Positions 4,511 to 39,220 of a DNA stretch of 64,000 bases are shown here, piece by piece. Where the stretch lies: NCBI RefSeq assembly GCF_024502345.1, contig NZ_JALDNN010000001.1. One strand, 5' to 3'. Numbering within the stretch: the first letter of the stretch is position 1; each line of letters begins with the position of its first letter. Source of the DNA: Escherichia coli (GTDB taxonomy: Bacteria; Pseudomonadota; Gammaproteobacteria; Enterobacterales; Enterobacteriaceae). The notes under the pieces were generated by a model, which made no database searches, was not told the DNA's origin, and saw only the letters and a list, made by a program, of their open reading frames with translations. The position numbers were made by a program, and so were the translations under genes.

Positions 4511-5269
4511 ATGAAACAAACACAACGTCACAACGGTATTATCGAACTGGTTAAACAGCAGGGTTATGTCAGTACTGAAGAGCTGGTAGAGCATTTCTCC
4601 GTCAGCCCGCAGACTATTCGCCGCGACCTCAATGAGCTGGCGGAGCAAAACCTGATCCTGCGTCACCATGGCGGTGCGGCGCTGCCTTCCAGTTCGGTTA
4701 ACACGCCGTGGCACGATCGTAAAGCCACCCAGACCGAAGAAAAAGAGCGTATTGCCCGCAAAGTGGCGGAGCAAATCCCCAACGGCTCGACGCTGTTTAT
4801 CGATATCGGCACCACCCCGGAAGCGGTGGCGCACGCGCTGCTTAATCACAGCAATTTGCGCATTGTCACCAACAATCTCAACGTCGCTAACACGTTGATG
4901 GTAAAAGAAGATTTTCGCATTATTCTCGCCGGTGGCGAATTACGTAGCCGCGATGGTGGGATCATAGGTGAAGCGACGCTCGATTTTATCTCCCAGTTCC
5001 GCCTTGATTTCGGCATTCTGGGGATAAGCGGCATCGATAGCGACGGCTCGCTGCTGGAGTTCGATTACCACGAAGTTCGCACCAAACGCGCCATTATTGA
5101 GAACTCGCGCCACGTTATGCTGGTTGTCGATCACTCGAAATTTGGCCGTAACGCGATGGTCAATATGGGCAGCATCAGCATGGTAGATGCCGTCTACACC
5201 GACGCCCAGCCGCCAGTAAGCGTGATGCAGGTGCTGACGGACCACCATATTCAACTGGAGCTGTGCTGA
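4511..5269 (+). CDS. glpR: DeoR-family repressor of the glycerol-3-phosphate regulon
   Basis: 252 aa; N-terminal HTH, DeoR-type C-terminal domain; gene order glpEGR. Confidence 0.93.
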   Translation: MKQTQRHNGIIELVKQQGYVSTEELVEHFSVSPQTIRRDLNELAEQNLILRHHGGAALPSSSVNTPWHDRKATQTEEKERIARKVAEQIPNGSTLFIDIGTTPEAVAHALLNHSNLRIVTNNLNVANTLMVKEDFRIILAGGELRSRDGGIIGEATLDFISQFRLDFGILGISGIDSDGSLLEFDYHEVRTKRAIIENSRHVMLVVDHSKFGRNAMVNMGSISMVDAVYTDAQPPVSVMQVLTDHHIQLELC

Positions 5270-7037: not shown

Positions 7038-8264
7038 ATGAATTACGAATTACTGACCACTGAAAATGCCCCGGTAAAAATGTGGACCAAAGGCGTGCCG
7101 GTAGAAGCCGATGCGCGTCAGCAACTTATTAATACGGCGAAGATGCCGTTTATTTTCAAACATATTGCGGTAATGCCTGATGTACACCTGGGTAAAGGTT
7201 CCACCATTGGTAGCGTGATCCCGACCAAAGGGGCGATTATTCCGGCGGCGGTGGGCGTGGATATTGGCTGTGGAATGAACGCGCTGCGTACCGCGTTAAC
7301 GGCGGCAGACCTGCCTGAAAACCTGGCAGAGCTGCGTCAGGCGATTGAAACTGCGGTGCCGCACGGACGTACCACTGGCCGTTGTAAACGTGATAAAGGC
7401 GCATGGGAAAACCCGCCTGTTAACGTCGATGCGAAATGGGCTGAGCTTGAAGCCGATTATCAGTGGTTAACGCAAAAATATCCGCGTTTCCTTAACACTA
7501 ACAACTATAAACACCTGGGAACGCTGGGAACGGGTAACCACTTTATTGAAATCTGCCTTGATGAGTCGGACCAGGTGTGGATTATGCTGCACTCCGGTTC
7601 ACGCGGAATTGGTAACGCCATCGGGACTTACTTTATCGATTTGGCACAAAAAGAGATGCAGGACCAGCTTGAAACGTTGCCATCGCGCGACCTGGCGTAC
7701 TTTATGGAAGGTACGGAATACTTTGATGATTACCTAAGAGCCGTGGCCTGGGCGCAGCTTTTCGCCAGCCTTAACCGCGATGCGATGATGGAAAACGTGG
7801 TAACGGCGTTGCAGAGCATTACGCAGAAAACGGTCAGACAGCCACAAACGCTGGCGATGGAAGAGATCAACTGTCACCACAACTATGTGCAAAAAGAACA
7901 GCACTTTGGTGAAGAGATCTACGTGACGCGTAAAGGCGCGGTGTCTGCGCGTGCTGGTCAATATGGAATTATTCCCGGTTCGATGGGAGCAAAAAGCTTT
8001 ATCGTCCGTGGGCTGGGAAATGAAGAGTCGTTCTGTTCGTGCAGCCACGGTGCCGGGCGGGTAATGAGCCGTACTAAAGCGAAAAAACTGTTCAGCGTGG
8101 AAGATCAAATTCGTGCTACCGCGCATGTGGAATGCCGTAAAGATGCCGAAGTGATCGACGAAATCCCGATGGCGTATAAAGATATTGATGCGGTGATGGC
8201 GGCACAAAGCGATCTGGTGGAAGTTATCTACACCCTGCGTCAGGTGGTGTGCGTAAAAGGATAA
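7038..8264 (+). CDS. rtcB: RNA-splicing ligase RtcB (3'-phosphate/5'-hydroxyl RNA ligase)
   Basis: 408 aa; RtcB family recognised by sequence and by context with rtcA and rtcR. Confidence 0.93.
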   Translation: MNYELLTTENAPVKMWTKGVPVEADARQQLINTAKMPFIFKHIAVMPDVHLGKGSTIGSVIPTKGAIIPAAVGVDIGCGMNALRTALTAADLPENLAELRQAIETAVPHGRTTGRCKRDKGAWENPPVNVDAKWAELEADYQWLTQKYPRFLNTNNYKHLGTLGTGNHFIEICLDESDQVWIMLHSGSRGIGNAIGTYFIDLAQKEMQDQLETLPSRDLAYFMEGTEYFDDYLRAVAWAQLFASLNRDAMMENVVTALQSITQKTVRQPQTLAMEEINCHHNYVQKEQHFGEEIYVTRKGAVSARAGQYGIIPGSMGAKSFIVRGLGNEESFCSCSHGAGRVMSRTKAKKLFSVEDQIRATAHVECRKDAEVIDEIPMAYKDIDAVMAAQSDLVEVIYTLRQVVCVKG

Positions 8265-35471: not shown

Positions 35472-36140
35472 TCACATTAGCGAGGGGATCAGGCGGCGGT
35501 AGTCATTCAGTGACGGATGGCGTTGATACTGTTTCTCGGCAATCCCTGAGTCAGGATTAGTCACGCCGAGGCAGTAACGAATACCAAATTGCGCGGCAGC
35601 ATCGAGAATCGCTTCGCTGTCATCAATAAACAGCGTTCTTTCAGCTTTCAGACCCGTAGCTTCGGCCACCGCATGCCATAACCGCTGATCCTCTTTCGGA
35701 TAACCAAATGTGTGGGTGGAAAGTAATAAATCAAGGTGTGCGTCCAGACCGGTATGCTCAAGTTTTACCGCCAGGTTGTGCGGATGCGCATTGGTGAGCA
35801 AAATTCGCTGCTTACCGCTGGCTTTCAGTGCCTCAAGAAACGGAATGGTATCTTCACGCAGTACGGCACGCGGTCCCATCTCGGTGGTCATCGCACAGAT
35901 ATCCAGACCCAGTTGCTCACTCCAGTAATCAAGACAGTACCAGTTTAGCGTATGCTGTACGTCGTGATATTGCTGGCGCATATATTCCATCGCTTCCTGT
36001 GGCGTAACCCCGTTTTTCGCGCCCCATGTTTCAGGCACCAGCTTTTGCCAGAAATAGTTATCGAAGGCGAGGTCGAGCAACGTGCCGTCCATATCCAGCA
36101 GAACGGTATCTACGTCCTGCCAGGCAATGTTGATATGCAT
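35472..36140 (-). CDS. yrfG: HAD-family nucleotidase/phosphatase YrfG
   Basis: 222 aa from MHINIAWQDVDTVLLDMDGTLLD (HAD motif I). Confidence 0.88.
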   Translation of the reverse strand: MHINIAWQDVDTVLLDMDGTLLDLAFDNYFWQKLVPETWGAKNGVTPQEAMEYMRQQYHDVQHTLNWYCLDYWSEQLGLDICAMTTEMGPRAVLREDTIPFLEALKASGKQRILLTNAHPHNLAVKLEHTGLDAHLDLLLSTHTFGYPKEDQRLWHAVAEATGLKAERTLFIDDSEAILDAAAQFGIRYCLGVTNPDSGIAEKQYQRHPSLNDYRRLIPSLM

Positions 36141-36204: not shown

Positions 36205-38340
36205 TTATTCGATAAGGCTTTCTGAAGGGGTGATCAGTTGCGGGTTCAGGCAGCTTTCATAATAGGCCTGAATCTTCATCATGCGAGTGCGATGACGCTG
36301 GTAACGCCGCCAGGCCTGTACGCCATTGTAAATGGCGCTACCCAGCATCGTCAGTAGCAGCAGCGTGGTGCTGAGATAGCGCCACAGGCCGGAACGATCC
36401 GGGATCGGATGAAGGCCTATATGCTGCGTACCATTGGCGTTAGTGAAGATTTTTGTGACGATACCCTCGGCGTTAAACGGCGTATGCATCAGCATTTGTG
36501 CCAGTTTCTGGAAAGCGTTCCACTGTTCTTGCGGCGGGTAGTCGTAAAGTGATGCCGAAGGCCAGGGCTGATCAACAAAATCGCTGCCTTCGTCGCTGAC
36601 AATCAGGAATCCGCCGGGGGCCGGACTGTTTAGTGATTGTGCTGCTCGCGCCGTTTCATGCGTGATAAACGGCGCGGTGGAGGTTGCCACCAGGTTATCC
36701 AGCGATTCCGCACTCACCGGGCGTAATAACACATTCACGCCATCGAGCTTCCCGGCGTTGGCGCGTTTTACCAGCGCGTCCCAGTCTTTACTGTTGCCGA
36801 GATTGACCAGCGCATTTTTCAGTCGCACACAGTCATCTTTGGCAGAACACAGATCCGCTGTCTTCAGTACAATGTCGCCAAAATCATCAAGCAATACCAT
36901 GCCGGATTTTTGAATCGCTGAACGTAATGAGGCACTGACGCGAGATTCATCTTCCGGTTTAGGGTGCAGCTGGCGATTAACTGCTTCAGTCAATGCCGTC
37001 GCTTTGTTGACCAGCTCAGATTCTGGTAATGGTAATGAGCGGGCGTCATTCCAGATGATCTGCGAGCAGTCAAACGGTAAAAAAGGTGAATTGGTTTTCG
37101 CGCTCCAGGTTCCGGAAGTGCGAATATTACACATTCCCGTACCGCTAATACGCAATGTATCGCCTACCCGCACGCCAGCGTCAGCCAGTTGTTTTACGCT
37201 GGTGGCTTCAATGGTCTGCGCGCCTTTCATCCATGAGAGAGTGAATTTCAGCGGCATATCCAGCGGGATCCAGAATAACAGCATAAACAGCACCAGCAGC
37301 GAGCCCGCAGCGATAATCGTACTGCGCAGCCAGTGCTGTAACGGAAAGTTTTTTACTTCATCATGCAGCGAAAGATATCGTCCCTGACGCACTACATGGC
37401 GGTCGAGATAGATATCGATATCGGTTTGTTGACCGAGATCCTGAGCAATGTATGGCTGCCAGTGTGCGGGATAGACCAGGTCGATAATACCGAGTGAAAT
37501 ATTGTTGATCTGTTCCTGATCGTTTTCGCCAAACAATCCCCAACGACGGGGTGTACCGCGCAGACAATGAATTTCCCGCAGGGAGGATTTTGCCGGGGGG
37601 GCGAATAGCCCCCACAGACCTGCGCCCAGCAGCAGTAATGCGCCGCCTGCCAGCCACGGAACAAATACATCCGGGGTAATCAGGCAGAAAAAGAACATCA
37701 GAAAGGAGGCGACGATCAGCAACGCTTCACGCAGCCCGCGCGGACGACTCAGCGCATACTCTTCATGCGTTTCTTTGCGAATATTGAGTAGCTCGATTTG
37801 CTCACTCTCTTCCCCGCGAATCGACGCCTGCGTGGACGGAACAGGTTGCAAGGCATAGCCGCGCGTTTCCTGCATGTACTCCTGCAGCGTATGACCGTTG
37901 AGTGAAATAACCAACGGCAGCGAATCGGTATGAATCAGTTCAACGGTATTCTCATCGTTGATGTACTGTTCCCAGAAGGGGGGCAGGTGGACTTCTACCG
38001 AATCGAGGTAGTAACGCCATTTATTCGGATCGTCGGTAGAGATGCCGTAACGTGTGATAGCGTGTGTCAGCATCATGACGTTGTTGCTTTCGGCATTCAG
38101 CGCCAGAGAGATCGGTGCCGCGCTGGCTCCCGTTGGGCCAGGCACCTGTAATACCTGCGTCAGGCTCTCAAGATAATTTTCAACGGCGCTACGTTCTTCA
38201 GGTGTGAGTTTACGCGTTTGCGCATCCGCGAAGGCGTTGGTCCAGGGCAGCTGACGCCGTCTGGATCGCACTTTTATCAGCCATCCCGCAAGTAGTGAGC
38301 AGGCCAGCAAAGCAGCTAAAAAAATCACAATGGTGCTCAT
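36205..38340 (-). CDS. igaA: inner-membrane repressor of the Rcs phosphorelay IgaA (YrfF)
   Basis: 711 aa; N-terminal TM segment, large membrane protein; position next to yrfG and nudE. Confidence 0.9.
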   Translation of the reverse strand: MSTIVIFLAALLACSLLAGWLIKVRSRRRQLPWTNAFADAQTRKLTPEERSAVENYLESLTQVLQVPGPTGASAAPISLALNAESNNVMMLTHAITRYGISTDDPNKWRYYLDSVEVHLPPFWEQYINDENTVELIHTDSLPLVISLNGHTLQEYMQETRGYALQPVPSTQASIRGEESEQIELLNIRKETHEEYALSRPRGLREALLIVASFLMFFFCLITPDVFVPWLAGGALLLLGAGLWGLFAPPAKSSLREIHCLRGTPRRWGLFGENDQEQINNISLGIIDLVYPAHWQPYIAQDLGQQTDIDIYLDRHVVRQGRYLSLHDEVKNFPLQHWLRSTIIAAGSLLVLFMLLFWIPLDMPLKFTLSWMKGAQTIEATSVKQLADAGVRVGDTLRISGTGMCNIRTSGTWSAKTNSPFLPFDCSQIIWNDARSLPLPESELVNKATALTEAVNRQLHPKPEDESRVSASLRSAIQKSGMVLLDDFGDIVLKTADLCSAKDDCVRLKNALVNLGNSKDWDALVKRANAGKLDGVNVLLRPVSAESLDNLVATSTAPFITHETARAAQSLNSPAPGGFLIVSDEGSDFVDQPWPSASLYDYPPQEQWNAFQKLAQMLMHTPFNAEGIVTKIFTNANGTQHIGLHPIPDRSGLWRYLSTTLLLLTMLGSAIYNGVQAWRRYQRHRTRMMKIQAYYESCLNPQLITPSESLIE

Positions 38341-38659
38341 GCTTTCCCCATCTTACTTAGTCTGTCAGGCGTGGTCAGTCGCACCGGACACAATACATGA
38401 TTCTGCGGTTGGCTATCGGCAAGCGTGGAGTTTAACTTGAGCATCATTAAGCACATCACAGTAACCGCTGATCATAGCAAACCCTCTGAAGGCGGAATAT
38501 CAGCAAATTCCTGGAGTTATTTCAACCTATTGACTTTTAATTTGATTTGAGGACGATTATTTATTAAGTTACATAAATGTAAATAACATGCAATTCACAT
38601 TGCCGAAAGCGTGTCCGATATCGCACAATAACCGCTGATTTCACAGCATAGATCCCACG

Positions 38660-39220
38660 ATGAGCAAATCATTACAAAAACCCACCATTCTGAATGTTGA
38701 AACTGTAGCCCGTTCCCGACTGTTTACCGTCGAGAGCGTGGGTCTGGAGTTCAGCAATGGCGTGCGGCGTGTTTATGAACGAATGCGTCCAACCAACCGG
38801 GAAGCAGTGATGATTGTGCCGATTGTGGACGATCACCTGATCCTGATCCGCGAATACGCAGTGGGAACTGAATCCTACGAATTAGGTTTTTCGAAAGGAT
38901 TAATTGATCCGGGTGAAAGCGTCTACGAAGCCGCTAACCGCGAGCTAAAAGAAGAGGTTGGATTTGGTGCGAACGATCTGACTTTTTTGAAGAAGCTCAG
39001 CATGGCACCGTCTTACTTTTCCAGCAAAATGAATATCGTGGTAGCGCAAGATCTCTACCCGGAATCGCTGGAAGGCGATGAGCCAGAGCCGCTACCACAG
39101 GTGCGCTGGCCGCTGGCGCATATGATGGATTTGCTGGAAGACCCTGACTTCAACGAAGCGCGTAATGTCAGCGCGCTGTTCCTCGTGCGCGAATGGTTGA
39201 AAGGGCAGGGGCGAGTGTAA
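38660..39220 (+). CDS. nudE: ADP-sugar / adenosine nucleotide hydrolase, Nudix family
   Basis: 186 aa; Nudix box GLIDPGESVYEAANRELKEEVGF. Confidence 0.93.
   Translation: MSKSLQKPTILNVETVARSRLFTVESVGLEFSNGVRRVYERMRPTNREAVMIVPIVDDHLILIREYAVGTESYELGFSKGLIDPGESVYEAANRELKEEVGFGANDLTFLKKLSMAPSYFSSKMNIVVAQDLYPESLEGDEPEPLPQVRWPLAHMMDLLEDPDFNEARNVSALFLVREWLKGQGRV

Follow-up and report, generated by a model that had tools for sequence, protein, structure and literature searches.

Does a short sequence that occurs twice in the control region of two divergent genes mark a pair of sites for one regulator, or have two unrelated stretches of DNA come to look alike by chance? The question is raised by an 11-bp word, TAACCGCTGAT, which is present twice in the region between igaA and nudE of Escherichia coli. 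igaA encodes an essential inhibitor of the Rcs envelope-stress phosphorelay, and nudE is a Nudix hydrolase gene. An initial annotation of the 64,000-nucleotide stretch of DNA analysed here (referred to as the window, in whose positions all coordinates are given) drew attention to the two copies and left both answers standing.

The igaA/nudE locus and the copies of the 11-mer

The window is part of the E. coli chromosome. With a 601-bp query centred on the repeat, matches of at least 95% identity were obtained in 5425 of the 5426 complete genomes of the species, and the 319-bp igaA/nudE intergenic region is identical in K-12 MG1655, whose U00096.3 coordinates are obtained by subtracting the window position from 3564809. 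One E. coli genome carries a second igaA/nudE region on a plasmid record, two being the maximum number of places per genome. The igaA gene starts on the minus strand (CAT at 38338-38340) and nudE starts with the ATG at 38660; yrfG and mrcA are the further flanking genes. The initial annotation named both genes correctly, and its description of the intergenic region as divergent, 319 bp long and AT-rich was correct in its coordinates and in its composition: the GC content of 38341-38659 is 42% versus 53% for the whole window, and it falls to 29% in the central part.

Both intergenic copies of TAACCGCTGAT are exact matches in the same orientation (Table 1), with a start-to-start distance of 167 bp, as the initial annotation had it. 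This distance corresponds to 15.9 helical turns, which places both copies on the same face of the helix. The CACA(G/A) element that had been noticed ahead of each copy is also there, as CACAG before copy 1 and CACAA before copy 2, so that the repeat is in fact a 16-nt one, CACA(G/A)TAACCGCTGAT, with 15 of 16 bases identical; in a gapped local alignment, one 2-nt gap stretches the similarity to 25 columns. On the minus strand, copy 1 reads ATCAGCGGTTA. Dyad symmetry is absent from the 11-mer. The count of two copies holds for the intergenic region and falls short for the window, as a third exact copy, inside the yrfG coding sequence, had been missed. A pattern scan of the 64-kb window also gave a one-mismatch copy at 7459.

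The repeat pair is nearly fixed within E. coli. The 41-nt context of copy 1 is identical in 5409 of the 5426 complete genomes, and that of copy 2 is exact in 5116 genomes and carries one or two mismatches in another 306.

Table 1. Coordinates of the genes, repeat copies and candidate elements at the igaA/nudE locus (window positions).
Feature	Position	Strand	Remark
igaA coding sequence, 711 aa	36205..38340	-	
nudE coding sequence, 186 aa	38660..39220	+	
Copy 1 of TAACCGCTGAT	38462..38472	+	exact match
Copy 2 of TAACCGCTGAT	38629..38639	+	exact match
Third copy of TAACCGCTGAT	35679..35689	+	exact match; inside yrfG coding sequence; flanks dissimilar
Extended copy 1, CACAGTAACCGCTGAT	38457..38472	+	
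Extended copy 2, CACAATAACCGCTGAT	38624..38639	+	
Candidate extended -10 element for igaA, TGCTATGAT	38471..38479	-	fits TGnTAnnnT
Candidate sigma-70 promoter of nudE	38600..38629	+	predicted; -35 TTGCCG 38600-38605, 18-nt spacer, -10 CACAAT 38624-38629
Most conserved intergenic blocks, ATATCAGCAAATTC and ATTTCAACCTATTGACTTTTAA	38497..38540		ATATCAGCAAATTC 38497-38510, ATTTCAACCTATTGACTTTTAA 38519-38540; distance from igaA -10 fixed
Conserved block TTACATAAATGTAAATAA	38568..38585		holds inverted repeat TTACAT-AA-ATGTAA (38568-38581)

Chance expectation for the repeat

Whether the repeat is surprising depends on the background with which it is compared. Taken within the intergenic region alone, it is mildly unusual: of 2000 dinucleotide-preserving shuffles of this region, 1.5% contained an exact direct repeat of 11 bases or longer (P = 0.015), and when its two halves were aligned locally with gaps, the score was 29, compared with 16.3 +/- 2.3 in shuffles (the 25-column match, P < 0.002). 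At the scale of the whole window, the repeat is not unusual. Order-1 Markov simulations give 4.9 +/- 2.0 exact direct pairs of 11 bases or longer within 320 bp, and the window has 10; all 64 kb had been scanned for the initial annotation.

For the word itself, the expected count per 64 kb is 0.03 under Markov models of order 0-1 and about 0.1 under models of order 2-4. The expectation rises at higher order because the word is built of oligonucleotides that are common in E. coli. With about 0.1 copies expected per 64 kb under these codon-aware models, the third copy, in yrfG, is therefore unremarkable (P about 0.1). Other direct repeats of at least 11 bases in the window start, for example, at 4638/4764, 9703/9953 and 45185/45485.

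Phylogenetic footprint and co-variation of the two sites

A scan with the NudE protein, limited to one genome per species, yielded 80 orthologous loci from Escherichia, Citrobacter, Salmonella, Enterobacter, Klebsiella, Raoultella, Kosakonia and other Enterobacteriaceae, and the regions were aligned with MAFFT (81 sequences). igaA and nudE are divergent neighbours in all of these orthologous loci, separated by a gap of 267-334 bp. The exact TAACCGCTGAT pair, searched for across the 80 orthologous regions, is present in E. coli only. Three other Escherichia lineages (L002, L003 and L005) have kept copy 1 and read TAAATACTGAT at the position of copy 2, a further one (L004) has kept copy 2 and reads TAACTGCTGAT at the position of copy 1, and E. 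albertii (L008) has neither copy in exact form. Outside Escherichia, neither exact copy was found at any of the loci in the set of 80.

The columns that the copies occupy are poorly conserved. Over the 81 sequences, the mean majority-base fraction is 0.78 for the whole region, 0.59 for copy 1 and 0.74 for copy 2, and when all 11-column windows of the intergenic region are ranked by conservation, copy 1 falls within the lowest 7% and copy 2 within the lowest 34%. Good conservation in copy 2 is limited to its first two bases (T, A), and the CGC core differs in almost every genus. The prefixes of the two extended copies also have different histories: that of copy 1 is CCCAGT in most other species, and that of copy 2, CACAAT, is invariant in all 81 sequences.

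If one protein were to read both sites, the two would be expected to share a consensus within each species, even where that consensus had drifted from the E. coli word. This is not seen outside Escherichia, where sites 1 and 2 agree on average at 7.03 of 16 positions within species and equally, at 7.03 of 16, between species, with a within-species maximum of 10. The two sites do not co-vary. Likewise, the halves of the region showed no significant similarity in the non-Escherichia consensus (P = 0.11), the best match there being a different segment. Within Escherichia, the ancestral sites were already alike at about 12-13 of 16 positions, and the match was completed by two or three point mutations along the E. 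coli lineage, all of which raised the similarity of site 1 to site 2.

The suggestion that the copies are paired sites for one regulator is thus not supported, as the motifs are not conserved in orthologous regions: the footprint finds the pair in E. coli only, in poorly conserved columns and without co-variation. Coincidence, the other possibility raised at the outset, is supported by the same lack of conservation and co-variation and by the window-wide background of 10 pairs versus 4.9.

Conserved candidate promoter elements on both sides

What the alignment does conserve lies next to the 11-mers rather than in them. On the nudE side, the -10 hexamer CACAAT is present in 81 of 81 sequences; the first four bases of the -35, TTGC, are equally invariant, and the full TTGCCG is found in 69 of 81. 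The spacer measures 18 nt in 77 of 81 sequences, and its middle part is variable. TTGCCG, 18 nt and CACAAT together have the look of a classic sigma-70 promoter footprint, and we take them as the probable promoter of nudE, with transcription expected to start at about 38636-38638, some 23 nt upstream of the ATG. Copy 2 begins on the last T of CACAAT and then covers the variable discriminator and the likely start site.

On the igaA side, a TGnTAnnnT element is kept at 38471-38479 in 80 of the 81 sequences, whereas its n positions vary freely, and there is no good -35 at 17 +/- 1 bp from it. This pattern suggests an extended -10 promoter of igaA, from which transcription would start near 38464; an alternative start may lie near U00096.3 position 3526320. 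Copy 1, read on the minus strand, consists of the last two bases of this candidate -10 plus the variable stretch downstream, which would hold the discriminator and the likely start site. A consensus scan gave a second promoter-like site on the minus strand, TTGAAA, an 18-nt spacer and GATATT, within 38497-38540. It is located 25 bp upstream of the candidate extended -10, and only about half of the species keep the terminal T of its GATATT.

In a genome-wide CRISPRi screen, several sgRNAs gave the strong multi-phage resistance phenotype of igaA knock-down (PMC7553319 S4 Table). They map to 38470-38489, 38485-38504 and 38513-38532 of the window, plus the leader at 38391-38425, and the igaA promoter should therefore lie in about 38470-38532. 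As the sgRNAs at 38485-38532 give the phenotype just as the one over 38470-38489 does, the sgRNA data do not separate the extended -10 from the TTGAAA/GATATT site.

The locus resembles known divergent back-to-back sigma-70 promoters, with its two genes 319 bp apart, its -35/-10-like hexamers, its conserved spacer length and its AT-rich centre. The 11-mer, however, is not among the conserved elements of this arrangement and overlaps the variable discriminator/start-site stretches of both promoters. The igaA side in turn is like other extended -10 (TGn) promoters in that TGnTAnnnT is kept in nearly all sequences (80 of 81) with its other positions free and no good -35, but it differs in having the second promoter-like site, and the element here is predicted from sequence. 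Since each copy starts inside a -10, the two copies would overlap analogous but unrelated low-constraint positions of two promoters. Relative to the transcription of these promoters, the copies are in opposite orientation.

A role of copy 1 in the RNA rather than in the DNA was also considered, namely that it belongs to a structure in the igaA 5' leader, pairing with TCTGCGGTT at 38402-38410 and controlling translation or stability. The inverted repeat formed by 38402-38410 and 38463-38471 is indeed complementary at 8 of 9 positions. However, RNAalifold predicted 0 conserved pairs on 44 orthologous leaders, the E. coli leader folds no better than shuffles (z = +0.42), and copy 1 would be mostly untranscribed if transcription starts near 38464. 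Such a structure is largely refuted by these data, and we regard it as extremely improbable. Under a permissive E-value, the only Rfam hits in 37800-39200 were two (E-values 0.96 and 2.5) that fell far short of the gathering scores. A cis-regulatory RNA in general was rejected for want of an Rfam match and of consensus pairs and for the same z value of +0.42.

Possible recent operators and IS1 insertions

Footprinting speaks to old regulatory sites, and a young pair has to be weighed separately. The copies might be recent E. coli operators, with one regulator binding just downstream of each -10 and co-repressing the two genes, perhaps through a loop of the intervening 167 bp. In favour of this, each copy overlaps positions of a core promoter at which repressors typically act, 15.9 helical turns separate the two, the pair has come close to fixation in E. 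coli, and the repeat is improbable within the intergenic region. Against this, the pair is missing even from sister Escherichia lineages, though the rest of the region is conserved there; the sites do not co-vary; the copies are oppositely oriented relative to their promoters; the third copy lies inside a coding sequence (yrfG); and a full-text literature search for the word gave unrelated primers only.

A further argument against recent operators comes from insertion sequences. At least three natural complete E. coli genomes carry IS1 in the igaA/nudE intergenic region. In one of them, strain EF7-18-51, the element (positions 441-1208 of locus L083) has inserted at 38531-38539, between the two copies and within the conserved TTGACTTTTAA block, where it is accompanied by a 9-bp target duplication and has increased the distance between the TAACCGCTGAT copies by about 770 bp. 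Although igaA is an essential gene, viability therefore does not depend on the 167-bp spacing. Taking both sides together, recent operators appear quite unlikely.

In its most explicit form, this proposal would make the two CACARTAACCGCTGAT words, 15.9 turns apart and found in E. coli only, putative operators of a factor that co-represses igaA, the brake on Rcs, together with nudE by looping. We consider this very unlikely. Were it true, it would be a very young regulatory link made by two or three point mutations. Near-identical sites, near-integral turns (15.9) and an overlap of each site with a core promoter are features that the locus shares with the operators of looping repressors of the LacI, GalR, DeoR and AraC types. 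Unlike those operators, the 11-mers are neither conserved nor co-varying, lack dyad symmetry and are not known to be bound by any protein, and IS1 between the sites is tolerated in EF7-18-51.

IS1 has been found upstream of igaA (yrfF) before. In laboratory-evolved mucoid clones, it is inserted at -20 to -47 from the igaA ATG (PMC3861542, PMC11541549). The insertions that cause mucoidy and the natural ones affect the same intergenic region, which is a known adaptive target (PMC3861542, PMC11541549), but they lie at -20 to -47 or at 38531-38539, and the 11-mers are not involved.

Origin of the similarity

The two sites might also have been made alike by a process that left no function behind: in the E. 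coli lineage they could have been homogenised by ectopic gene conversion over a short patch, or by an ancient duplication of the promoter-proximal segment of nudE. Three observations would fit such an origin, namely the reach of the gapped similarity in E. coli (25 columns), a second weak repeat, ATCAGCAAAT / ATGAGCAAAT, at the similar spacing of 161 bp, and the substitutions of the E. coli lineage, which all raised the similarity. We nevertheless hold it to be unlikely. The ancestral sites were already alike at about 12-13 of 16 positions, and only two or three point changes were needed; the non-Escherichia consensus holds no trace of a duplication; and the 156 bp between the copies are conserved at a fixed spacing in 81 of 81 sequences, with no insertion or duplication in Escherichia. 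It also counts against conversion that homology of less than 15 bp rarely seeds a conversion tract.

Two other kinds of origin were rejected. An ancient duplication in its own right does not agree with an inter-copy segment that is conserved at a fixed spacing in every species or with consensus halves that lack similarity. A mobile or repetitive element (REP/BIME, MITE or a target-site duplication) was set aside, given that all 81 sequences have the 156 bp between the copies at a fixed spacing and that the third copy has unrelated flanks; these 156 bp are ancestral, so the repeats are no target-site duplication.

Most likely, and in our view with high probability, the two 11-mers are a lineage-specific, coincidental identity without a function of their own. 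They sit in the divergent igaA/nudE promoter region, which has a strongly conserved overall layout in Enterobacteriaceae. Copy 2 would extend from the last base of the presumed nudE -10, CACAAT, through a variable discriminator/start-site stretch, and copy 1, on the opposite strand, from inside the presumed igaA extended -10 through the variable stretch downstream of it. Starting from ancestral Escherichia sites that matched at about 12-13 of 16 positions, two or three substitutions at unconstrained positions could have produced the 15 of 16 found in E. coli.

Several findings count against coincidence: the low probabilities within the intergenic region (P = 0.015 for the 11-mer and P < 0.002 for the 25 columns); near-fixation in E. 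coli; the 15.9-turn spacing; the third copy 2.8 kb away; and the fact that every E. coli-lineage change increased the similarity. The repeat is of no importance as a regulatory element, since it fails footprinting and stays within the chance background of the window.

A rigidly spaced, conserved control region

A by-product of this work is a map of the conserved igaA control region, comprising the candidate igaA extended -10, the candidate nudE promoter and three rigidly spaced blocks. Blocks at least 90% identical in all 81 sequences are TCGCACAAT (38621-38629), CATTGCCGAAAGCGTG (38598-38613), ATAGCAAA (38474-38481), TTACATAAATGTAAATAA, ATTTCAACCTATTGACTTTTAA and ATATCAGCAAATTC; the igaA ribosome-binding region reaches the same level. 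The spacings between ATATCAGCAAATTC, ATTTCAACCTATTGACTTTTAA, TTACATAAATGTAAATAA and CATTGCCGAAAGCGTG are rigid (21, 22 and 32 nt in 80-81 of the 81 sequences), and in all 81, a distance of 32 nt separates the TTACATAAATGTAAATAA block from the candidate nudE -35 downstream of it. The TTACAT-AA-ATGTAA inverted repeat within TTACATAAATGTAAATAA is a candidate protein-binding site. Taken as a whole, 38471-38629 looks like a strongly conserved double promoter with rigid spacing across Enterobacteriaceae, and it is in the conserved blocks, not in the 11-mers, that regulators of igaA should be sought.

The most conserved block, (T)ATCAGCAAATTC (38497-38510), agrees with the core consensus of IHF, WATCARNNNNTTR, in 12 of 13 positions. 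None of the consensus sequences of CRP, Cra, DnaA, sigma-E, sigma-32 and sigma-54 fitted the 11-mers or the conserved blocks, and these comparisons serve as leads only. The RcsB box, with the consensus TN(G/A)GAN4TC(T/C)NA (PMC7913699), was compared by eye with the most conserved block, TCAGCAAATTCCTG, and was rejected as a match on account of two mismatches at contacted positions.

The weak second direct repeat, ATCAGCAAAT / ATGAGCAAAT, is located at 38499-38508 and 38660-38669. Its first member falls in the most conserved block, and its second is the nudE start codon region.
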